Shown here: positions 818-30,590 of the stretch, in pieces
Numbering within the stretch: the stretch's first letter is position 1
How the letters are laid out: each line of letters begins with the position of its first letter
Assembly (NCBI GenBank): GCA_963711915.1
Contig: CAVQGA010000019.1
Location: 19,186 to 83,185, forward strand
Reading direction: 5' to 3'
DNA from: an uncultured Gemmatimonadales bacterium
GTDB taxonomy: Bacteria > Gemmatimonadota > Gemmatimonadetes > Gemmatimonadales > GWC2-71-9
DNA: 64,000 bases
Program-made: the position numbers and the translations under genes
Notes under the pieces: model-generated
The model's input: the letters and a program-made list of their open reading frames with translations, nothing else
What the model was told of the DNA's origin: nothing
Database searches by the model: none

Positions 818-1928
818 CCGTCACCAGCGACTCGAACAGCCGGAGGTACTCTGCGGCCACATGACTCACGGAGTATTTCGCGAGGGTCGACTCTGGAGGA
901 CGTGCCCGGGTACCGTCGCCGGCCGCATCAACCAGGGCCTCTCCCATCGCCGTCGCGTTGCCCACGGGGATCAGGGCGCCCCAGCGGCCGCTCTCCAGAA
1001 TCTCGCGCGGGCCCGCGGGACAGTCGGTCGAAACGACGCGTGAGCCCAGGGCAAGCGCCTCGACCAAGACCGTGGGAAGGGCCTCGCTCAGCGACGAAAG
1101 CACCACGACCCGCGCGCGAGCCATGTAGCGGTAGGGATTCGCGACGAAACCCGGCAGGCGGACCTGCGCCTCGAGGCCGAGCTCCCGAATCAGCCGTTCG
1201 AGCGCCGGACGCTCCTCTCCTTCGCCCAGAATGACCAGCCGCATGGCGCGGCGACTCCGCGCGTAGGCGAACGCATTGATCAGCGTCGGCAGGTCCTTGA
1301 CCTGGGTCAGCCGGGCCACGGCCAGCACCACCGGCGGCTGGCCGGCCTCGAACCACGGGTCCGCCACCGGCTCAGCCGCGAGCGTCGCGAGGTCGGCGGG
1401 GAGGGCAGCATTGGGCATGACCCTTACACTTGCTTCCTCGAGGCCGAGGAAGCGCACAAGATCCTCGGCCGCACCCTGTGACACGGCCACCAGTGCGTCG
1501 GCGCGGGGGTACCACCTTCGCGCCAGCCACGGCAACGCCGTTCGATCCCGCCAGCCGCGGGCCCTCGACCACTCCTCGGACATGGCGACATGTGTGGCAG
1601 CGACGGTGCGGGTCTCCCCTCCGGCCAAGCACGCGGCCCACAGCGCCACGACATTGGATTGGCTGATGGCCGACACCAGCACCCCTGGCCTCGTCTCGCG
1701 GAGGTATCGGCCCAACGGCACGGTCGCAAAGGCCAGCCGGCGCGCCCGGAGGTCGACCAGTCGTACGGCGGCCGGGACGCGCTCCCGGAGCGGCCCTTTC
1801 CCCTGCGCCACAACCAAGTCCGTGGACATCCCCTGGGCTGCCAGACCCGCCGCTAGATTCACCGTGACGCGCTCGGCCCCTCCGCCGACGAGGGAGGGGA
1901 TGAAAAGCGCGACGCGGACGTTCCTCAT
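801..1928 (-). CDS. Glycosyltransferase family 4 (GT-B fold)
   Basis: Track ORF 801..1994. N-terminus MRNVRVALFIPSLVGGGAERV and C-terminal VVLSSLSEALPTVLVEALALGSRVVSTD are typical GT4. Start set at ATG 1928, which forms an ATGA overlap with the upstream methyltransferase stop. Confidence 0.85.
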   Translation of the reverse strand: MRNVRVALFIPSLVGGGAERVTVNLAAGLAAQGMSTDLVVAQGKGPLRERVPAAVRLVDLRARRLAFATVPLGRYLRETRPGVLVSAISQSNVVALWAACLAGGETRTVAATHVAMSEEWSRARGWRDRTALPWLARRWYPRADALVAVSQGAAEDLVRFLGLEEASVRVMPNAALPADLATLAAEPVADPWFEAGQPPVVLAVARLTQVKDLPTLINAFAYARSRRAMRLVILGEGEERPALERLIRELGLEAQVRLPGFVANPYRYMARARVVVLSSLSEALPTVLVEALALGSRVVSTDCPAGPREILESGRWGALIPVGNATAMGEALVDAAGDGTRARPPESTLAKYSVSHVAAEYLRLFESLVTDARDH

Positions 1929-2816: not shown

Positions 2817-4052
2817 CTACATGGTTCCCCGCCCCGCGGAACGGCCCGCGGGAGCGAGGTCCGGCGATGCGCCCGGCGAGCGTGCGTCCAGGACCTCCTG
2901 GTAGGCCGCGAGCGTGCGCGCCGCCACCACGTCCGCGTGGAATCGGGCCAGTGCGATGTCGCGTCCCCGCTCTCCCATTCGCGCGCACGCCGCCGGATCG
3001 TCCAGCAGCGCCACGATGCGCCCGGCCAGGCCCGGGAGATCTCCAACATCGACCAGAAAGCCCGACCGGCCATCCTCCACCAGCTCGGGCACCCCCCCGA
3101 CGCGAGTCGCCACCACGGGGCGCCCGGCAGCCATGGCTTCGGCAATGACCATCGGCGAGGTCTCCTGGCCGGAGCACAACACCAGGCAGGTAGAGCGCCG
3201 CAGCTCTTCCAGCATGCCCGCCTGGTCCAGGCCGCCAAGCAGCACGACGCGCTGACCAAGCCCTCGTCCTTCGATCTCCCGCAGCATCGACCGATGGTAG
3301 GCCCGATCCTCGATGGGCCCGACGATGCGCAAGGTCGCCTCGGGCCGGCGGGCGAGCACGAGGGGCATGGCACGGATCATGTCGACAGCGCGCTTCCGCC
3401 GATTCAGGGCGCCGGCGAGGAGTATGCGGTCGCGCTCCCCGCATCCCTCGACCAGAAAGCATTCCTCACTCACTGGGTTCGCGATGTCGTGCAGCCGCCC
3501 AAGCAGCGAGGCCCCAAAATACCGGCGGACGTAGCCGCTGCTGATCACAATCAGATGTCGGGCGCGCCGCACGACCGCGCGCTCACAGAGGACATGGGCC
3601 ACAAGACCGCGCAGCCGCTGCATCGGCGTCCGGAAGTAGCGAGCATCCTCCCGCATGATGCCGTGGAGCGTGACGATCGTCGGGTCCCAGACCCGCAGGC
3701 ACGCATACCCATATGGCGACGATCCCACCGCATGCACGAGGTCCGGCCGCAGCGTTCCCAAGTACTTCACCAGTCGCCGGCGTAACGCGGCCTGACGGGT
3801 GACCACCTCGAAGCGGCGGTTGGTGGCGAGGAAGTGAAACTGAGCTCCTTCGAGCACGGGATGCTCGTCGGCGACGAGATCGCCAAGGCACGAGATCACA
3901 TGCAACTCGATGTCGTCGCGCCGGCGCAGACCCGCGACTAGAGCCATCGTAGCGGTCTGAACGCCGCCGGTGGCATCCCGGAGGTCACGTGGGATGTCCC
4001 CGACAAGCGCCACCCTTGTCCGCCGGTTCTGGATGGCCAGTGCTGGCGCCAT
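2817..4052 (-). CDS. Glycosyltransferase family 4
   Basis: C-terminal 411 aa of track ORF 2817..4631, from MAPALAIQNRRTRVALVG, with ...LCSGQETSPMVIAEAMAAGRPVVATRVGGVPELVEDGRSG (GT4 E-x7-E region). ATG 4052 lies 2 nt before the upstream gene stop. Confidence 0.85.
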   Translation of the reverse strand: MAPALAIQNRRTRVALVGDIPRDLRDATGGVQTATMALVAGLRRRDDIELHVISCLGDLVADEHPVLEGAQFHFLATNRRFEVVTRQAALRRRLVKYLGTLRPDLVHAVGSSPYGYACLRVWDPTIVTLHGIMREDARYFRTPMQRLRGLVAHVLCERAVVRRARHLIVISSGYVRRYFGASLLGRLHDIANPVSEECFLVEGCGERDRILLAGALNRRKRAVDMIRAMPLVLARRPEATLRIVGPIEDRAYHRSMLREIEGRGLGQRVVLLGGLDQAGMLEELRRSTCLVLCSGQETSPMVIAEAMAAGRPVVATRVGGVPELVEDGRSGFLVDVGDLPGLAGRIVALLDDPAACARMGERGRDIALARFHADVVAARTLAAYQEVLDARSPGASPDLAPAGRSAGRGTM

Positions 4053-4054
4053 GG

Positions 4055-4735
4055 TCACTTCTGGCCCACCAAGTAGACGGACGGAAAGGTTATGTGCCGG
4101 AGTCCGGTCCGGTCCAGGAACCGCACCGCCTCTGCCCAGCGTGGGTATACTTCCGTGTAGTACCGCGGGGTCACGTCCCAGACCGAGCGAAACGCTCCCC
4201 CGACTGCTCGCCGGAGCTCCGCGGCCGAGAAGCCTGCATGTGCGCCATCTTCGTTCCTGAATCTGCCCGCCAGGCGGGCACGCCAGTCGACCACATTCCA
4301 CCACACGCGCTGCCTCCACGTGGCATCCTTGCTGCCCAGATACCCGATGAGGCGACTGCGATTCGGCGTGCCGACGCAGCACACGCCGGAGACGCGCAGG
4401 ACCCGGCTCATTTCGGCGAGCGCACGGTGGAAATCCGGAATGTGCTCCAGGGCATGGAAGCAGTAGACCAGGTCGAACGTGCCCGATGGGAAGTCGAGTC
4501 GGGTAGCATCTCCCTGCCGGAGCTCCACCGCCTGCGCAGCGGCGGGGGCGAAGTCGTCCCGCAGGTCGATGCCGACGACGGCCGCGTCGAATTCCTGGCC
4601 TAGCACCGCGGCTTCCAGGCCTTCGCCACACCCCACGACGAGAATGCGCTCCGGGCCTTCATGTCCGAGCCCCCGAAGCACGCGGGCCAGAGCGGAAGTC
4701 TTCGGTTCGCGGAACGCGGTGGCCGTGCCGCTCAT
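4055..4735 (-). CDS. Class I SAM-dependent methyltransferase
   Basis: VVGCGEGLEAAVLG (motif I), FDLVYCFHALEHIPD. ATGA overlap with the downstream Wzy-like gene. Confidence 0.8.
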   Translation of the reverse strand: MSGTATAFREPKTSALARVLRGLGHEGPERILVVGCGEGLEAAVLGQEFDAAVVGIDLRDDFAPAAAQAVELRQGDATRLDFPSGTFDLVYCFHALEHIPDFHRALAEMSRVLRVSGVCCVGTPNRSRLIGYLGSKDATWRQRVWWNVVDWRARLAGRFRNEDGAHAGFSAAELRRAVGGAFRSVWDVTPRYYTEVYPRWAEAVRFLDRTGLRHITFPSVYLVGQK

Positions 4736-6126
4736 CCCGCCGGCCGGCTGCCGAAGGCGAACACCGCGGCCTCGGCTTGGGCCTGCAAGTCAGCGACCGG
4801 TACCGCGGTGATCGAAACGCGGTCCAGTTCCAGGTGCACCCGCTGGCTGAGCGCCGCGAACACCCACAGCAACGCGTTGGGCGTCAGGGTATACCGCAGC
4901 TCGACCGTCACCGCGTTCACGAGAAAGGCCAGCCCCACGAGCGTGGCTGTGAGCAGCAGTCCAGCTTGATCCGGGCGCAGCCGGGGGCGGCGGGAAAGGT
5001 ACGTTCTCACGCCCCCCAGAGTAGCGAAGCCCAGAATACCGGCATACAGGCTCCCGAAGACGATGCCGAGCTCGGCCAGGGCCGTGAGCAGCGTGTTGTG
5101 CGACCCCCCCTCCCAGAATCCCTTGCTGAAGGCGATGCTGAGAAAATGGGAGAACTCGAAGTAGTCGCTCATCACATTGCCGAAGTTTCCATAGCCGACG
5201 CCGAGCAGCGGGTGGGCGTACACCATCTCGGCCGTCGCGACGAGCAGATTCAGGCGATCATTGATGGGCTCGGATTCCTTGAGCCGGGGTACGAGCTCCA
5301 AGGAGCCGAACATGACGACCGCGACTCCCACCGCGGACAGACCAGCCAGAATGCGATACACGCCAGACCCCGGCCAGCGAAAGCAGGCCCCGACGAGAGC
5401 CATGAGCGTCAGCGCGAGGAGGACCGCGCGAGTGTCAGTGAGGTACGCCCCCACGCAGAGCAAGGTGATAACGGCGGCGGCTGCGACCCGCTGCGGACCG
5501 CGGCTGAGCGTGCGCAACAGGACGGTGGCGGCCAGGAGCTGGACCATCACCGTGCCGTTGAATGCAGCCTGAAGAAAGGGTCCCCGCGCGCGGCCGAAGT
5601 GAATTCCGACATTGGGATCGCCGATCGAGGACGGCACCAGCGCCCAGGTGAGCGACGCCTTCTCGCAGAGCGCGGTGAGCCCGAGGTAGGCGCCGAACAC
5701 CGCGAGTATCGCACAGAAGCGCCGGATGTCCCGCACCGTGATGTGCGTCCGGAGCACGATCGAATAGGCGACGGCGGGAAAGAGAAGGGCGTTGCAGAGA
5801 ACGTTGACGTCCCCCGACTCGGCGCCGCTGGCGAACCCACCGCCGAACACTCCGGAGGCGCCGGCGAACAGGGTCACGATCCAGAGCATGAGCTCCAGCC
5901 CGTGGAGCGATCCCGGCCCGGCTTTCCGGATCGCGAAGGTGGTGATGGCGAAGAGCAGCAGACCGAGGAAGAGCACCCGCTCGACGGTCACGTCGGGAAG
6001 TCCTGGCACGCCGGTCAGTCCGAAATCGCGTGTGCAGGAGAACGCGATCCACAGCGCCAGCACTGGGAGGACGACGCGCCCGGGAAGGACCGTGGTGGGG
6101 GAGGCAGCCCTACGCAAGCTGGCCAT
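4732..6126 (-). CDS. O-antigen ligase / Wzy-like polysaccharide polymerase (multi-TM)
   Basis: 464 aa, about 10-12 hydrophobic segments. HPLLGVGYGNFGNVMSDY...GGSHNTLLTALAELGIVFG resembles the Wzy_C/O-antigen ligase motif. Confidence 0.75.
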   Translation of the reverse strand: MASLRRAASPTTVLPGRVVLPVLALWIAFSCTRDFGLTGVPGLPDVTVERVLFLGLLLFAITTFAIRKAGPGSLHGLELMLWIVTLFAGASGVFGGGFASGAESGDVNVLCNALLFPAVAYSIVLRTHITVRDIRRFCAILAVFGAYLGLTALCEKASLTWALVPSSIGDPNVGIHFGRARGPFLQAAFNGTVMVQLLAATVLLRTLSRGPQRVAAAAVITLLCVGAYLTDTRAVLLALTLMALVGACFRWPGSGVYRILAGLSAVGVAVVMFGSLELVPRLKESEPINDRLNLLVATAEMVYAHPLLGVGYGNFGNVMSDYFEFSHFLSIAFSKGFWEGGSHNTLLTALAELGIVFGSLYAGILGFATLGGVRTYLSRRPRLRPDQAGLLLTATLVGLAFLVNAVTVELRYTLTPNALLWVFAALSQRVHLELDRVSITAVPVADLQAQAEAAVFAFGSRPAG

Positions 6127-6150
6127 GGCTGATCGCGGTGTCCGCCGAAG

Positions 6151-7680
6151 TCACAGCGCCCCGCGACCTGCGATGACCGCCCACGGAGTGCGCGCCAGGA
6201 TCCGCAGGTCGAGGCCCAGTGACCATTCATCGATGTACTTGAGATCCAGGGCGATCCATTGATCGAACCCGATCTCGGATCGGCCGCCGACCTGCCACAG
6301 GCCGGTCAGGCCCGGGAGCACGCTGAACCGGCGCATCAGCCACGCCTCGCTGAAATTCCGGACATCCCTGAGCGGCAATGGTCTGGGCCCGACCAGCGAC
6401 ATCTCTCCACGGAGGATGTTCGCGAGCTGCGGCAACTCGTCGATCGAGGTTCTCCTGAGGAAGCGGCCGACCCGCGTCGTGCGTGGATCTGCCCGCATCT
6501 TGAAGACGGGCCCCCCGGCATCGTTTTTGTCCTCGAGTTCGGCCTGGCGCATCTCTGCGTCCGCGACCATCGTGCGGAACTTGTGCATCGAGAACCGGCG
6601 GCGCTTGTAGCCGAAGCGCTCCTGAGAGAAGAAGATCGGCCCTGGGCTGGTCAGCTTGATGGCCACCGCGGCTCCGAGCATGACAGGGAGACAGACCACG
6701 AGCAGCACCGTGGCGCCCAGGAGATCGATGGCCCGTTTCAGCGGCAGGTTGTAGGCGTCCGGGGTCGTGCGCACGGTGATCTCGGAGCCATCGCCCGTCG
6801 CACGATACGGCCGGCCGGGCAGCGCCGGCCGGAAGACATCGCCGAGGTAGGTGCATTGGACACCCTGGCGCGCACACACCTCGAGGGTCTCCTGAATCTG
6901 CGAGTAGCACGAACGGACGGGCAGCGCGATCAGAACCTCATCGACCGAGCGCTCCATGATGATCCGGTCGAGGTGCTCCAACGTTCCCAGCACACTCGAG
7001 TGCAGCTCCTCGCTGCCGGCGTAGCCCTCGACGTCGACGAAGCCGACCACACGCGGGGGAGTGCGCCCATCGGCTTCGGCCATCTGGCGGGACACCCGCA
7101 AGGCCCGCGGGCCGCTTCCCACGATGAGCACCTCCTGCGCCATCTTGACCTGCAGCCGCGAGACTCGGCGGGCGACCGCGCGAGCCACAATACTCCCGAG
7201 CACGCTGGTGACCCAGAACGACAGCACGGCGATCAGGTCGAAGGCGCCGGTCCTGCTGATAAGCGGGAACACCAGGGCGCAGCAGCTCCCGACAGTGCAG
7301 GCAAGCACGACCCGCCACATCTCCTCGCGCGGCCGCCGGAGGACCTTCCATTCGTACAAGCCGGCCAGGTTCCAGATGGCGCGCCAGAGGACGGCGAACA
7401 CCGCAAGCAGTAGGAGGTTCTTCACGGTCAGGCGCAGCGCCAGAAACTCCGCCATGCCCTTGGGCATGTGGTTCACGTTGGTGATCACGTACGACAACAC
7501 CAGCGCCAAGGCGGCAACGACGGCGTCGCTGAAGCGATAGAGCTGCAGCAGGGGCTGGCGGTCAATCCACCGGCCCTCGGCAGCTCCGGGCGCGCTCCCC
7601 GACAGTCCAGGACGCATGGCGGCGCCGAGTCCGTCCAGGGGCGGTGCGGGATTGGGCGAGGCTGCGGGAAGTGACGTCAT
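6151..7680 (-). CDS. Polyprenyl-phosphate glycosyl-1-phosphate transferase (WbaP/EpsB-type priming sugar transferase)
   Basis: [57 protein letters not shown]...[23 protein letters not shown] is the canonical bacterial sugar transferase domain. Confidence 0.9.
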
Positions 7681-20671: not shown

Positions 20672-20791
20672 CGGCGAGTTGCCGTGCCATAGGGAAGCAC
20701 CTGGTTAGGTGACAGGGGGTGTCGAGAGTATAACTGGGGGCGGATAGCGACTTCCAGGGTGTGGCGGCGTCAATTCCTGGAAGGAGCCCAG

Positions 20792-20874
20792 TGCCCGAGG
20801 CGAGAGTCGAACTCGCACGGGGTTGCCCCCGGAGGATTTTGAGTCCTCTGCGTCTGCCATTCCGCCACTCGGGC
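20792..20874 (-). tRNA. tRNA-Leu(CAA): tRNA-Leu, anticodon CAA (type II, normal 14-nt variable arm, A73)
   Basis: Hand-folded minus strand: GCCCGAG-UG-GCGGAAUGGCAGACGC-A-GAGGA-CUCAAAA-UCCUC-C-GGGGGCAACCCCGU-GCGAG-UUCGACU-CUCGC-CUCGGGC-A. CCA is not encoded. Confidence 0.9.
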
Positions 20875-28162: not shown

Positions 28163-28191
28163 AACTTAGATGGGGGTGTGGGTTGGGGCAA
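28163..28191 (-). promoter_or_regulatory. Candidate sigma-70 promoter for rplU-rpmA in the 88 bp left between rplU and the transposon end
   Basis: Minus strand TTGCCC-17 nt-TAAGTT. Pattern match only. Confidence 0.25.
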
Positions 28192-28220
28192 GGGGCGGAG
28201 AGGACGGAGGTGGTGTCCGG

Positions 28221-29084
28221 TTATGACCGTAACAGAGTCGCCGGGTCCATCAGGGCAACGATGTCCTTGACTGTCCAGACCTTGTCCGCCAGCCCCGATG
28301 CCATTGCCGGGGTTGTCTTAGTGCCGCCGGCGGCCTTGGTGAGCGTCTGGTGGGGCCGGCAATAGTTGTAATACAGGAAAAATAGGCTCACCGCGTGCGC
28401 GTGATTTTCGGCCTTCTTTGAGAAGCCGTTGGTCAACCTCGTGAAGCGGCGGCTTTGCATCCTGAGCGTCAGGTTGCTGCGCTCAACGTAGGAGGTGGAC
28501 ACAAGCTCCATGTCGGGGCGACCAATTAGGCGGACCTTTTCCGCGCCGATGCAAACCGGGGGCGAGTACCGGCGCGAGGCGTCGGCCGGATTATCCGTCT
28601 GCCCGTACTCCTTCACGAGCATGGCGTAGTCCACCTCGCCAACCTGGAAAGCACTCCGCACGGCGGTCAGATACATGCCGTGCCCGTCGGTCGTGAGCTG
28701 AATGCGCCGAGCCAGCCGCGAACGGAGGTCGCGCATGAACGTGATCGCGTTCTCCTGGCTCCGAGCCCCAACCAGCCACGTGAGCATCAGCTTTGAATCG
28801 CTGTCTACCGCCGTGAACGTCCAAATATCGCCGTCGCCCGGGCGGATTGCCCGGCGCTGCTTCGCGCCACAAAACGCCCAGATTTCATCCGCTTCTGCAC
28901 GGACTGTTTTCAGGTTGCGATGGGCGAGGTCCTGGTAGGTCGAAGCAAACTCCCCCGCTTCGACCAAGAGCTTCATTACCGTTTCTTTGTTGGCCCCGGT
29001 GAGCCGAGCGGTTGCCCGAATGCCGTTGCCCTCACATAGGGCGGCAATAATCGCGGCACGGCGGTCGGCGGAGAGCCTGTTCAT
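28221..29084 (-). CDS. IS1-family transposase (single ORF, ISMhu11-like organisation)
   Basis: N-terminal HTH MNRLSADRRAAIIAALCEGNGIRATARLTGANKETV. DDE core ADEIWAFCGAKQRR..WTFTAVDSDSKL..LTTDGHGMY..YVERSNLTLRMQSRRFTRLTNGFSKKAENHAHAVSLFFLYYNYCRPH matches the IS1 InsB pattern. The stop codon lies inside the left IR. Confidence 0.85.
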   Translation of the reverse strand: MNRLSADRRAAIIAALCEGNGIRATARLTGANKETVMKLLVEAGEFASTYQDLAHRNLKTVRAEADEIWAFCGAKQRRAIRPGDGDIWTFTAVDSDSKLMLTWLVGARSQENAITFMRDLRSRLARRIQLTTDGHGMYLTAVRSAFQVGEVDYAMLVKEYGQTDNPADASRRYSPPVCIGAEKVRLIGRPDMELVSTSYVERSNLTLRMQSRRFTRLTNGFSKKAENHAHAVSLFFLYYNYCRPHQTLTKAAGGTKTTPAMASGLADKVWTVKDIVALMDPATLLRS

Positions 29085-29183
29085 TGTAACGCTCAATATA
29101 GCCAAATGCTGACGCATAGTCAAGCACAATGTGTGTGCGTGGCTAGCGTGTGCGCGGTTGCACAGGATGCTACAGCACTTGAC

Positions 29184-29223
29184 CTATTAGAGCATTAGCG
29201 GTACATTACTAATGCTCTAATAG
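29184..29223. repeat. Perfect AT-rich palindrome (15-bp arms, 10-nt spacer) upstream of the transposase
   Basis: CTATTAGAGCATTAG-cggtacatta-CTAATGCTCTAATAG. Confidence 0.9.
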
Positions 29224-29302
29224 CTCAAGCCTCGACAGCACAGAGAGTTAGGGCACTAAGGCGGCGGCATCTTGGCCTCCTTGGTCGAAAGTGAAAAGAG
29301 GG

Positions 29303-29403
29303 CGGGACGTGTGGGATTCGAACCCACGGGGGCTACCGGCCTAGACAGCTTTCACCCCGTCGGATTTTGAGTCCGCTGCAATCGGCCACTCTGCCAACGT
29401 CCC
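29303..29403 (-). tRNA. Atypical tRNA gene: anticodon CAA, G73 discriminator, about 32-nt variable region (101 nt without CCA)
   Basis: Hand-folded: GGGACGU-UG-GCAG-AGUGGCCGA-UUGC-A-GCGGA-CUCAAAA-UCCGA-[CGGGGUGAAAGCUGUCUAGGCCGGUAGCCCCC]-GUGGG-UUCGAAU-CCCAC-ACGUCCC-G. U8, G18G19, U33, A37 and the T-loop UUCGAAU are all canonical. Confidence 0.7.
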
Positions 29404-29476
29404 CGAAGTTGTCTCTGCGAAGCCGCCCGGTCCCCCCAAAGGTCAGGCGGCTTTCGCATATCCTGCTGCTTCTCTC

Positions 29477-29926
29477 CTAGAGCGCGTAGATCAGACCCTG
29501 CTCATCCCGCAGAAGCCGTTTCCGGTGAACCAGGTTACTGACGGTGTTCACCACGATCCGGCGCGGGTTGTCGGAGCTGGTGTGGATGCGGCTCTCCAGG
29601 GCGTCGGCAATGTCCTCGATTCGGACACCGTGCCCGCGCTTTCCGTTCACGTAATCCAGCACCGCCTCCACCGCGCCGGGACGATCCCCGTTTTCAGCGT
29701 GCGCGACCGACGGCGGAAAGAGCTGGCTCTGCGCGATCCCGTTCACGCTCGGCGGCCCGACCGCAATCGTCGCCGCCCCCGGTACTGACACCGCCATCCT
29801 CTTGAGCGACAGCAACCATTTGCGCTCCGCCTCGATCATCTGCGCTTGCCGCTCCAGCTCGGCCAGCTTCTGGTCGATCACGGCGATGGGGATAACCTGC
29901 TCCACCTCGGCCACGGCAACCTCCAT
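29477..29926 (-). CDS. Hypothetical protein (passenger ORF; N-terminal coiled coil, possible C-terminal winged-helix)
   Basis: 149 aa. QKLAELERQAQMIEAERKWLLSLK, then AVLDYVNGKRGHGVRIEDIADALESRIHTSSDNPRRIVVNTVSNLVHRKRLL, which is reminiscent of Mrr_N/HARE-type wHTH. Resemblance only. Confidence 0.5.
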   Translation of the reverse strand: MEVAVAEVEQVIPIAVIDQKLAELERQAQMIEAERKWLLSLKRMAVSVPGAATIAVGPPSVNGIAQSQLFPPSVAHAENGDRPGAVEAVLDYVNGKRGHGVRIEDIADALESRIHTSSDNPRRIVVNTVSNLVHRKRLLRDEQGLIYAL

Positions 29927-30048
29927 GTAGGGCCAACCTTCCCAAGTGCGTTGAATTTACCTGGCGCGTGTGCGTTGCGCAAGCGCCACGGGCCAGCCGT
30001 GTGAGCGGGCTGGCCCGTGTTTCACGTGTAACAGGGTGTGTGACTGGA

Positions 30049-30291
30049 CTACTCCGGGCGGCCTCTCCATCGTGCATTGGCGGCATCCCGGGCAATGCGG
30101 GACCGTTCCTCAGGGCTCAGCTTGGCGCGTCCGCCCTTCTTGCCGCCCATTGAGCCCCGGGCGACGGCCTCCGGGTTTTTCTCGCGCTGGCCGGGCGGCG
30201 GCGTCTTTTCCGCTTGACCCGTGGCCTCCAACATGGTGCGGAACGCGATCTCGGCCACGTCGGGCCGGAGCTTGGTCGGTTTCTTCGGCAT
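30049..30291 (-). CDS. Hypothetical small basic protein (passenger ORF)
   Basis: 80 aa. The C-terminal GGKKGGRAKLSPEERSRIARDAANARW motif recurs in small phage/plasmid-associated DNA-binding-like proteins. Confidence 0.5.
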   Translation of the reverse strand: MPKKPTKLRPDVAEIAFRTMLEATGQAEKTPPPGQREKNPEAVARGSMGGKKGGRAKLSPEERSRIARDAANARWRGRPE

Positions 30292-30349
30292 GACGGAATC
30301 TAACGCCCGGCGCGGCGGTCATTGTACCAAGTCATAACCGGACATCACC

Positions 30350-30439
30350 GAGGACGGAGAGGACGGAGAGGACGGAGAGGACGGAGAGGACGGAGAGGAC
30401 GGAGAGGACGGAGAGGACGGAGAGGACGGAGAGGACGGA
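30350..30439. repeat. Perfect tandem repeat (GAGGACGGA) x10
   Basis: Counted directly; 9-nt unit. It generates the artefactual RRGRRG / SVLSVL ORFs in the track. Confidence 0.95.
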
Positions 30440-30450
30440 GCCGAAGGTAC

Positions 30451-30534
30451 TGTCATCCCGAGCGCAGGGAGGGATCTTGCCCGGGAAGGCTCGAACCCCG
30501 GCGGAGCAGATCCCTCGCTCCGCTCGGGATGACA
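30451..30534. repeat. REP/MITE-like palindromic element, copy 2 (84-bp subfamily)
   Basis: TGTCATCCCGAGCGCAGGGAGGGATCT...AGATCCCTCGCTCCGCTCGGGATGACA. Confidence 0.85.
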
Positions 30535-30553
30535 CCGCTGACCCCGGATTCCT

Positions 30554-30590
30554 TCCGTCCTCTCCGTCCCTCCGTCCTCTCCGTCCCTCC
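30554..30590. repeat. Inverted copies of the 9-mer (TCCGTCCTC/TCCGTCCC x4) on the other side of the REP
   Basis: Reverse complement of the GAGGACGGA units. Ends 8 nt from the RNase E/G stop codon. Confidence 0.85.

Follow-up and report, generated by a model that had tools for sequence, protein, structure and literature searches.

An IS1-family element between rng and rplU carries a recurrent winged-helix protein and tRNA module in an exchangeable cargo slot

An intact element between rng and rplU

The window analysed here is a stretch of 64,000 nucleotides from an uncultured Gemmatimonadales bacterium (assembly GCA_963711915.1, contig CAVQGA010000019.1, positions 19,186 to 83,185), and window coordinates refer to this 64-kb stretch. 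The relatives of its RNase G likewise point to a Gemmatimonadales host. At 28209-30349 it holds a single, structurally intact IS1-family element of 2.1 kb, located between the RNase G gene rng and rplU, in which the genes for a small basic protein (ORF80) and a transposase enclose a gene for a 149-residue protein (ORF149) and an irregular tRNA with the anticodon CAA. For comparison, 160 loci with relatives of the transposase were retrieved, 80 from genomes and 80 from metagenomes, and the inverted repeats of these relatives were located by motif and fuzzy searches. Labels such as L001 or L083 denote loci retrieved for comparison. The features of the window locus are as follows.

28163-28191, minus strand: native rplU promoter TTGCCC-17-TAAGTT, unbroken, 17 bp outside the element; same layout in L082, L083 and L084
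28200-28208, no strand: flanking direct repeat GAGGACGGA on the rplU side, same nine letters at 30350-30358; putative 8-9-bp target duplication
28209-28227, no strand: terminal inverted repeat GGTGGTGTCCGGTTATGAC at the transposase end, starting GGTGGTG; the transposase stop codon falls within it
28221-29084, minus strand: IS1-family DDE transposase (PF03400) of 287 amino acids, a single open reading frame (ORF) of 864 bp including the stop codon, with an N-terminal helix-turn-helix (HTH)
29095-29123, minus strand: transposase promoter TTGACT-17-TATATT, 10/12 against the consensus, 10 nt before the ATG and without a Shine-Dalgarno sequence
29178-29229, no strand: long hairpin or palindrome with 21-bp arms (20/21) and a 10-nt loop, between the tRNA and the transposase promoter
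29256-29270, minus strand: mini-ORF MPPP-stop (ATG CCG CCG CCT TAG) with AAGGAGG 6 nt upstream, between the tRNA and the long hairpin
29303-29403, minus strand: irregular class-II tRNA of 101 nt, anticodon CAA, Rfam RF00005 score 50.3 bits, without an encoded CCA
29417-29457, minus strand: G+C-rich hairpin between the ORF149 stop codon and the tRNA
29477-29926, minus strand: ORF149, 149 amino acids, with a long N-terminal helix, a disordered linker and a C-terminal winged helix (AlphaFold, homologues)
29987-30019, minus strand: hairpin 3' of ORF80, at the position of the terminator in minimal elements
30049-30291, minus strand: ORF80, small basic protein of 80 amino acids with the motif ...KNPAAVALGRxGGxKGGKARAxxLTxEERSxIAxKAAxARW
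30331-30349, no strand: terminal inverted repeat at the ORF80 end, reverse complement GGTGATGTCCGGTTATGAC, starting GGTGATG
30350-30440, no strand: native 9-bp tandem array GAGGACGGA x10.1, the insertion target; the second copy of the flanking repeat is the first of its units

The inverted repeats, GGTG[G/A]TGTCCGGTTATGAC at 28209-28227 and 30331-30349, match at 18 of 19 positions; an earlier note on this DNA had recognised them, albeit at a slightly shorter 17 bp with 16 matches. A third copy of the 19-bp repeat is absent from the rest of the window (chance expectation 0.01). The ends of IS1 elements follow the consensus GGnnnTG, with GGTGATG in IS1 itself (ISfinder). Nearly the same end as that on the ORF80 side, GGTAGTGTCCGGTTATGACTTGGTACA, is seen in L002 and L003. 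The G+C content is 55-65% within the element versus 65-75% in the flanks.

Outside both ends stands the identical nonamer GAGGACGGA (28200-28208 and 30350-30358), just as previously reported, and its second copy opens a perfect array of 10.1 copies of the 9-bp unit on the rng side (30350-30440). Because the target is itself a 9-bp tandem array, a target duplication cannot be proven for the window, nor can 8 bp be told from 9 bp. This limit had been foreseen in the earlier note, but its preferred length of 9 bp is not what complete relatives show, where duplications are of 8 bp (7-8 bp); clean ends beginning GGTAGTG... with 8-bp target duplications were found in L018, L038, L078, L080, L021, L117, L141 and L119. 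The only other occurrence of the element is in L001, which was considered as an independent second copy and rejected, being a Logan contig that covers this very locus in a different read set, with flanks that are also identical.

Empty sites were found in three relatives with RNase G sequences 93-94% identical to that of the window. Their rng-rplU spacers measure 78, 238 and 128 bp, and the insertion sequence (IS), the tRNA and the ORFs are all absent from them. L083 shows the layout of the window minus the element, with a hairpin followed by a CGCCCTCTC x4 array that runs directly into CCCTTGCCCCAACCC...TATGTT, so that an array equivalent to that of the window adjoins the rplU promoter. Such uninterrupted spacers, with the same native 9-bp array and rplU promoter, indicate that the window element is a recent insertion. 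Comparing the spacers of relatives had been proposed as a test of whether the passengers are ancestral; the outcome favours mobility and, with the IS1 DDE domain, upholds the claim of a true IS1-family insertion between the RNase gene and rplU.

The left end of the element lies 87-88 bp from the rplU ATG (28121), in line with the 88 bp given before. The earlier note had also argued that rplU must be expressed either from TTGCCC-17-TAAGTT or by read-through from the transposase gene. The candidate promoter is conserved at the empty sites, as TTGCC[C/T]-17-TATG[T/C]T, and since it is native and intact, read-through is not needed. The insertion thus leaves the rplU(-rpmA) promoter whole, and rplU expression is predicted to be intact.

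A backbone of ORF80 and a single-ORF transposase

The window transposase matches the Pfam domain DDE_Tnp_IS1 (PF03400) with 36.1 bits (cut-off 24.1) and retains 58 of the 59 positions that are conserved at 95% or more in an alignment of 156 sequences. It has at least 7,995 homologues, and all of those that are named are called IS1 family transposase. As had been noted, the gene fills only 864 bp of the element (28221-29084), and all of the remaining features lie on the same, minus, strand. Classical IS1 makes its transposase by a -1 frameshift between insA and insB'; the window element has no insA/insB' overlap and no frameshift. By these sequence criteria we place the transposase in a distant IS1 subgroup rather than in classical IS1. 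Single-ORF and ISMhu11-type members are the closest within the IS1 family. The ISMhu11-type subgroup comprises elements of up to 4.6 kb with two ORFs; the window element fits this size range and layout, and we take the subgroup as a candidate home.

By tblastn, 78 of the 160 related loci encode an ORF80 homologue on the transposase strand, upstream of the transposase gene. It is located just inside the transposase-distal inverted repeat and always within clean ends, and the alignment has invariant D11, G53, G54, R74 and W75. ORF80 has no match in Pfam or NCBIfam; a homologue on a Mesorhizobium loti plasmid carries the annotation 'histone H1'. Because ORF80 recurs inside the ends, including those of minimal elements, both ORF80 and the transposase promoter belong to the backbone and are not passengers, and alignment supports ORF80 as a conserved backbone gene of this IS1 subgroup. 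The earlier note had counted the 80-residue ORF among the passengers and arrived at an element that is 60% passenger DNA; without these backbone parts, true cargo comes to about 40-43%. A TAGATT box 5-8 nt before the ORF80 ATG is conserved in the window (30291-30349), L002, L003 and L008, and ORF80 may also be made from a leaderless transcript that starts near the inverted repeat.

Minimal elements have only about 100 bp between ORF80 and the transposase start, versus 965 bp in the window. This spacer comprises a rho-independent terminator, then TTGACA-ATGCTTGAGCGCTCAAGCAT(ATT), some 7 nt, and the ATG. A perfect 20-bp palindrome, ATGCTTGAGCGCTCAAGCAT, spans the promoter spacer and the -10 box in L032 (862-963), L034 (4885-5001), L106 (790-900) and others. 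An operator palindrome combined with a start about 7 nt before the ATG suggests an operator-controlled, leaderless transposase mRNA that is not translated from read-through transcripts. The operator-bearing promoters of these minimal relatives are homologous to the window transposase promoter, and a leaderless or near-leaderless transposase mRNA is likewise predicted for the window.

Between the tRNA and this promoter lies the long hairpin, which had been described as a perfect palindrome; its arms (29178-29198 and 29209-29229) are in fact complementary at 20 of 21 positions. Hairpins occur at the same position in L125, L129, L130 and L132, with the common base CTTGAGCTA...TAGCTCAAG and upper stems that differ yet remain paired. 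The base resembles the operator half-sites of the transposase promoter. The hairpin may terminate cargo transcription or act as an operator. A promoter-like sequence, TTGACC-17-TACATT (9/12), lies inside the palindrome at 29179-29207 on the plus strand, antisense and pointing at the tRNA. The mini-ORF previously noted is indeed present at 29256-29270, after the strong Shine-Dalgarno sequence AAGGAGG (29256-29282 in all); the spacers of 12 other elements with a tRNA yielded no counterpart. Its polyproline leader, MPPP, could stall ribosomes.

An exchangeable cargo slot

In the window, the slot from the ORF80 terminator to the transposase promoter measures about 860-925 bp (40-43% of the element), and the cargo proper is ORF149, the 101-nt class-II tRNA(CAA) and the long hairpin. 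The distance from ORF80 to the transposase varies widely among relatives, with extremes of about 100 and 3,467 bp. Pfam searches of the slot in these relatives returned HTH_3 plus Peptidase_M78 proteins in eight loci, an MqsA-like antitoxin with a SecB-like chaperone, PIN_10 with HTH_66/DUF433, a HipA-like kinase with DUF3037, N6/N4 or C5 DNA methylases (one with an Mrr-like nuclease), a STAND NTPase, and also P63C, DUF6941 and an SDH-type protease.

The backbones of L002, L003 and L008 are 80-83% identical to that of the window and carry quite different cargo, which indicates that cargo is replaced more quickly than backbones diverge. Relatives that share the backbone either lack ORF149 and the tRNA or have other genes. 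Some complete elements have an extra 0.9-1.3 kb between the ORF80-side inverted repeat and ORF80 (L021 2075-3426, L141 1855-2897, L119 2036-2893), suggesting a second cargo position beside the slot between ORF80 and the transposase. In the acidobacterial locus L041 (3335-10827), three IS1-family elements of about 2.56 kb stand head to tail with their inverted repeats abutting, each with ORF80, a STAND-type NTPase and a transposase.

ORF149 and its family

ORF149 has no match in Pfam or NCBIfam, and a word-indexed protein search returned only ORF149 itself. An exhaustive search found 38 small homologues with 26-54% identity, most of them aligned over nearly the full length. An AlphaFold model built with the homologue alignment has a mean pLDDT of 84.6, with an N-terminal helix at residues 14-44 and a winged helix at residues 85-148 (helices 85-95, 103-110 and 121-134, strands 138-140 and 145-148). 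This agrees with the earlier suggestion of a coiled coil and a possible winged HTH, and in the model the N-terminal helix is probably a dimerising coiled coil. In Foldseek comparisons, the winged-helix domains of linker histones, cullin (WHB) and Rpa2 reached target-normalised TM scores of 0.6-0.75. The larger regulators of the Fur and BlaI types scored lower, at 0.35-0.42, and the E-values were no better than about 0.03. We read the modelled likeness to linker-histone, Fur, BlaI and Rpa2 winged helices as generic only. Most likely, ORF149 would be a DNA-binding transcriptional regulator of the tRNA.

A profile of the ORF149 family detects members exactly between ORF80 and the tRNA in three other elements, L117 (E = 2e-16), L005 (E = 4.5e-12), where the tRNA also has the anticodon CAA, and L132 (E = 5e-4). 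In L085 a further member is found beside an IS1-family transposase. L141, L163, L113 and L059 have ORFs in the place of ORF149 whose N-termini look coiled-coil by eye, and homology to ORF149 was not detected in them. The recurrent layout is therefore ORF80, a coiled-coil/winged-helix protein, a tRNA, a hairpin, and the promoter with the transposase. The sequence comparisons indicate that the cargo is a recurrent module of an ORF149-family protein and a tRNA rather than a random assortment.

tRNAs of sister elements

IS-linked tRNAs were sought with ARAGORN, with a covariance model built in this analysis and with Rfam. Of the 144 loci whose upstream sequence was long enough, 19 have a tRNA on the transposase strand, 119-235 bp before the transposase start; with the transposases clustered at 95% identity, this holds for 15 of 131 clusters. 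The tRNAs of L021 (55.0 bits) and L005 (29.4 bits) pass the Rfam curated threshold, as do 11 further IS-linked tRNAs (metagenome loci and L059; 38.9-66.2 bits). The transposases of tRNA-bearing elements are 44-90% identical to each other, so these elements are not one recent clone.

Four tRNA-bearing elements are complete, with both inverted repeats and duplications of 7-8 bp: L021 (3.8 kb, GCAAGCCC), L117 (2.2 kb, CTTACCGG), L141 (3.0 kb, CACGCAAC) and L024 (2.7 kb, GTAAGGG). As the tRNA is inside both repeats and the target duplication, it is carried within the element. A role of the tRNA as a target for insertion or as an attachment site was rejected on these grounds, and also because the cargo is 5' of the tRNA and not 3'. 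The anticodons differ among elements as follows.

ACU: L021, L105, L113, L145
GCU, on class-I bodies: L024, L111, L125, L129, L130
GUU: L141
ACG, on an 89-nt class-II body: L162-L166
UGU, with an extra stem-loop: L059
Irregular anticodon loops: L117, L132
CAA, on class-II bodies: window, L005

Among the four ACU tRNAs, whose elements have transposases 72-90% identical (L021, L105 and L113 being comparable), 9 of 11 variable stem pairs change on both sides, a single cell is unpaired, and the loop CUACUAA is invariant. These compensatory changes and the invariant loop point to selection on a folded RNA that depends on its anticodon, and we regard them as good evidence, at the sequence level, for structural selection on orthologous tRNAs of sister elements.

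The ACU and GCU anticodons answer the serine codons AGU and AGC, and we know of no bacterial tRNA-Ser that is class I. Going by E. coli sequences, we take the class-I ACU tRNAs to carry the arginine marks A20, C35, U36 and A73 on a body near that of tRNA-Arg(ACG). Most class-I GCU tRNAs have C35, U36 and A73; A20 is confirmed in L130 alone and apparently missing in L125, and L129 has no D-arm (contig end). At conserved Lys/Arg columns of the transposase, AGY codons are found in 3/196 cases in ACU/GCU elements versus 2/4142 (Fisher p ~8e-4, phylogeny ignored). Counting AGU at such columns gives four in tRNA-bearing elements and none in the others, which have a single AGC. AGU at positions that are mostly Lys/Arg in 156 homologues is seen in the transposases of L105 (4001-4855, anticodon ACU), L130 (1169-2005, GCU) and, as the fourth case, L117 (4001-4855, irregular loop). 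The nominal AGY enrichment is a lead only, as the events are few and the one-step mutational path from AGR to AGY is a confounder.

Three further tRNA arrangements were observed. L145 has two irregular tRNA genes in tandem (1056-1242, minus strand) with the anticodons ACU and ACG, and the tRNA(UGU) of L059 (4767-4855) has its extra stem-loop between the D and anticodon arms; both are reminiscent of irregular tRNAs described by Mukai et al. 2017 (PMC5389517), namely those of the polycistronic and 'E-loop' kinds. In Terracidiphilus, L051 contains a textbook (8/4) allo-tRNA(UAU) at 3241-3327 (minus strand), in which the acceptor stem has 8 bp, the D-stem 6 bp and a loop of 4 nt, and the T-stem 4 bp. 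It adjoins a 3.6-kb IS1-family element (3386-6952), lying 59 bp outside the left inverted repeat and not inside.

Identity marks of the window tRNA

The atypical tRNA reported earlier is well supported: at 29303-29403 the sequence covers the full RF00005 model (positions 1-71), its 50.3 bits exceed the gathering threshold of 29 bits, and 20 of 21 cloverleaf pairs are intact. The Rfam alignment and a constrained fold give a canonical 7/5 cloverleaf with the acceptor stem GGGACGU/ACGUCCC, the D-arm GCAG-AGUGGCCGA-UUGC, the anticodon arm GCGGA-CUCAAAA-UCCGA (a regular 7-nt loop with U33, CAA and A37), the T-arm GUGGG-UUCGAAU-CCCAC and the discriminator G73. The variable arm is about 30 nt long, with a basal stem of 5 bp that leads through an internal loop to a small distal stem. 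The predicted free energy is no better than that of shuffled sequences (z = -0.53), ARAGORN at default settings misses the tRNA, and blastn of its sequence against E. coli genomes gave no match. With introns allowed, ARAGORN proposes tRNA-Asp(GUC) with a 22-nt 'intron', which we rejected since the Rfam alignment has a regular anticodon stem-loop instead. Membership of the allo-tRNAs, which have a 12-bp acceptor branch divided 8/4 or 9/3, was also rejected: the acceptor stem has 7 bp and the T-stem 5 bp, and an eighth acceptor pair would be U-C. As 8/4 and 9/3 folds are impossible for the window sequence, it is not structurally an allo-tRNA.

Bacterial leucine identity rests on A73 and the A15-U48 tertiary pair, and the C2-G71 of tRNA-Leu is an antideterminant against SerRS; serine identity relies on the long variable arm and G73 while the anticodon is ignored, and G73 in tRNA-Ser acts as an antideterminant towards LeuRS and TyrRS (Giege and Eriani 2023, PMC9976931). 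The window tRNA has G73, G2-C71 and G15/C48. The leucine marks therefore fail, with neither A73 nor A15-U48 and with the G73 antideterminant in place, while the serine marks (long variable arm, G73 and G2-C71) are all present on a tRNA whose anticodon is not that of serine. The host tRNA-Leu(CAA), at 20791-20874 (minus strand) about 8 kb away, has A73, C2-G71 and A15/U48; two tRNAs with the same CAA anticodon and opposite identity marks are thus found less than 9 kb apart in one genome. The 5' half of the window tRNA matches annotated phage tRNA-Ser (up to 25/25 in the D-arm) and tRNA-Tyr, and never tRNA-Leu. Most likely, the window tRNA is predicted to be anticodon-switched, charged with serine and able to read the leucine codon UUG.

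Interpretation and alternative readings

We read the locus as an intact IS1-family cargo element, recently inserted, that carries a recurrent winged-helix and tRNA module with a tRNA that is likely serylated and reads UUG, and we put the probability of this reading at roughly 0.6. The element entered the native 9-bp array 17 bp upstream of the rplU promoter, presumably by IS1-type DDE transposition, which, from family membership, would produce an 8-9-bp target duplication. Its backbone consists of the GGTG(A/G)TG... repeats, ORF80 with its hairpin, a transposase promoter close to the ATG and the single-ORF DDE transposase, and the slot between the ORF80 terminator and the transposase promoter holds exchangeable cargo. 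ORF149, probably a dimeric winged-helix protein, would regulate transcription of the tRNA, and the long hairpin probably ends cargo transcription. SerRS would charge the tRNA, with G73, G2-C71 and G15:C48 excluding LeuRS, and the serylated tRNA(CAA) would then read UUG leucine codons. The sequence data establish the anatomy, the insertion, the division into backbone and cargo, the repeated occurrence of the tRNA and the ORF149 family, and structural selection on the orthologous tRNAs of sister elements. We infer expression of the module, the amino acid that is charged, what ORF149 does and any gain for element or host; the benefit could be mistranslation, a toxin-like or defence role, or a decoy.

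Several observations weigh against parts of this reading. The identity rules derive from E. coli and other models rather than from Gemmatimonadota, and a variable arm of about 30 nt with an internal loop exceeds that of any normal tRNA-Ser and could block charging. The discriminators of class-II IS tRNAs also differ (U in L005, C in L163), so that no single identity rule applies to the group. The four UUG codons of the element, two in the transposase and one each in ORF149 and ORF80, are all at leucine positions. In the transposase and ORF149 these leucines are strongly conserved, and one of them, L38 of ORF149, is nearly invariant. This pattern would fit a leucine-inserting tRNA better, or at least indicates that the element does not depend on recoding; a transposase that needs recoding by its own tRNA was rejected for the same reason. 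A scan of metagenome and viral collections with the exact acceptor-stem/T-arm pattern did not find other copies of the tRNA, and the exact combination with this ORF149 is known from the window locus only. As to the family, the NCBIfam IS1 equivalog NF033558 scores 61.6 bits, below its cut-off of 100 and over residues 19-162 only, and the single-ORF transposase does without the insA/insB' -1 frameshifting of classical IS1.

The alternative that survives best, although we consider it unlikely, is that the tRNA does not serve decoding and belongs to a toxin-antitoxin-like or defence-like module, either as a decoy or replacement for a host tRNA that is hit by an anticodon nuclease or tRNA-modifying toxin, or as a toxic mistranslating RNA silenced by ORF149. 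The company kept by the slot speaks for it, since relatives hold PIN, HipA-like, MqsA/SecB, HTH plus Peptidase_M78, restriction-modification and STAND NTPase genes there, and the invariant anticodon loop of the ACU group would suit an anticodon-specific protein as well as decoding. Irregular tRNAs have also been found beside toxin-antitoxin systems, and six allo-tRNA(UAU) variants were translation-inactive, two of which killed E. coli (Mukai et al. 2017, PMC5389517). However, the window element has no toxin-like gene, and the winged helix of ORF149 is of a generic kind only. Once made, a stable tRNA is beyond the reach of a repressor, so the classical addiction scheme does not follow, and a decoy of the anticodon loop would not need the complete cloverleaf, T-loop and acceptor stem that are retained.

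A broader and more speculative proposal, to which we give little credence, is that a widespread IS1 subgroup uses anticodon-switched tRNAs as a switchable mistranslation device, whether as toxic, abortive-infection-like cargo or as a private decoding rule. Serine-type bodies would read UUG or CGN, and class-I bodies marked for arginine (A20, C35, U36, A73) would read AGU/AGC. The tRNA gene keeps a set position ahead of the transposase promoter and is often accompanied by a coiled-coil/winged-helix regulator. The toxic variant would parallel the toxin-antitoxin genes that occupy the same slot. In the private-code variant, element genes would have begun to rely on recoding, with a hint in the AGU codons at conserved Lys/Arg positions in tRNA-bearing elements only. 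If true, this proposal would also explain the irregular tRNAs of soil metagenomes.

It is improbable that the window tRNA is an ordinary supplementary tRNA-Leu(CAA), charged with leucine and boosting the decoding of rare UUG codons for the element or the host. The CAA anticodon does sit in a normal 7-nt loop with U33 and A37, a second CAA tRNA accompanies the ORF149 homologue of L005, and all four UUG codons in three ORFs of the element encode leucine, three of them strongly conserved. Against this, G73, G2-C71 and G15:C48 are the opposite of the leucine set that the host tRNA-Leu(CAA) shows in full, and the host already owns that tRNA. For the group as a whole, codon supplementation fails, as the sister anticodons (ACU, and GCU on class-I bodies) are foreign to standard bacterial sets.

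We think it very unlikely that the cargo is a functionless hitch-hiker, in the form of a decaying tRNA pseudogene and an orphan ORF149 trapped between the backbone genes by illegitimate recombination. The exact cargo being known from the window locus only, the exact-pattern scans that gave no tRNA homologue, the rejection by default ARAGORN and a free energy like that of shuffled sequences (z = -0.53) would all be expected of such debris. Decay sits poorly with 50.3 bits in Rfam and 20/21 intact cloverleaf pairs, with the 38 full-length distant homologues and confident fold of ORF149, with the pairing of protein and tRNA in three other elements, and with compensatory substitutions in orthologous IS tRNAs. 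Finally, that the block is ancestral to the rng-rplU locus and not mobile, for which only its position speaks, is already refuted to near certainty by three close relatives with uninterrupted 78-238-bp spacers, the drop in G+C inside, and the inverted and flanking repeats.

Relation to known systems

Under the preferred reading of a cargo element with a likely serylated tRNA, the window element shares with the IS1 family the IS1-type DDE domain, the GGTG(A/G)TG ends, the 8-9-bp flanking repeats and a small basic protein encoded upstream, and with some IS1 members the presence of extra internal DNA. It differs from IS1 in its separate ORF80, which lacks a zinc finger and any Pfam match and is followed by a terminator, and in a dedicated, operator-bearing promoter for the transposase. 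Like transporter IS (tIS), it carries genes unrelated to transposition between its inverted repeats, here ORF149 and the tRNA and in relatives toxin-antitoxin, methylase and regulator genes. Unlike in tIS, there is one fixed slot between two backbone genes, and the tRNA stands at a fixed distance from the transposase promoter in 15/131 clusters.

With allo-tRNAs, the window tRNA has in common a long variable arm and an anticodon at odds with its predicted identity, and the combination of serine-type marks with a leucine anticodon has a counterpart in (9/3) allo-tRNAs, which include UUG readers (Mukai et al. 2017, PMC5389517); its fold is canonical 7/5 and not 8/4 or 9/3. The irregular tRNAs of that study came from soil and acidobacterial metagenomes, near toxin-antitoxin genes, with one overlapping a 'transposon-related protein', and its authors speculated on a link to transposable elements (PMC5389517). 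Beyond this work, our data add the IS1 context, the fixed position, the ORF80 backbone and the ORF149 partner. Accessory tRNAs on mobile elements are also familiar from phages, plasmids and integrative elements, and the 5' half of the window tRNA is near phage tRNA-Ser and tRNA-Tyr; unlike in those cases, a 2.1-kb IS carries one identity-mismatched tRNA, which is neither part of a codon-usage set nor an integration target.

Natural mistranslating tRNAs include the tRNA-Ser(CAG) of CUG-clade yeasts and the tRNA-ProA/ProRSx pair of Streptomyces. As in these, the window tRNA is predicted to join the body of a tRNA for an anticodon-blind synthetase to the anticodon of another amino acid. The yeast and Streptomyces genes are chromosomal, and in Streptomyces a dedicated synthetase is present, whereas the window tRNA is on a transposable element together with a winged-helix protein.

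Literature searches returned no description of an IS-borne tRNA cargo, the fixed slot, the ORF80 backbone or the ORF149 partner, and nothing relevant on ISMhu11 or on IS1 together with tRNA. IS with passenger genes and irregular tRNAs from soil metagenomes are already known; what appears to be new is a family-wide IS1 slot with a tRNA and ORF149. For IS and tRNA specialists, it is this family-wide pattern, rather than the single copy, that is of interest. An IS is usually seen as a transposase plus ends; the IS1 subgroup described here moves toxin-antitoxin and defence genes in a defined slot, with about one in nine element lineages carrying an irregular tRNA under structural selection. This offers a concrete genetic home and vehicle for the irregular or "missense" tRNAs of soil metagenomes, raises the possibility that mobile elements spread altered decoding among bacteria, and makes function testable in a compact 2-kb unit of tRNA, candidate regulator and transposase.

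Architecture of the native spacer

The native rng-rplU spacer (window 30350-30590; L083 2027-2266) is a large imperfect palindrome. In the window, a hairpin with 27-bp arms (30451-30534, GTCATCCCGAGCG...CGCTCGGGATGAC) is set between oppositely oriented 9-bp arrays, GAGGACGGA x10 on one side and TCCGTCCTC-like x4-5 on the other. The same palindromic spacer architecture is seen in the relative L083 with other repeat units. It could have arisen by expansion of the rng terminator, or it could represent a small repeat element.

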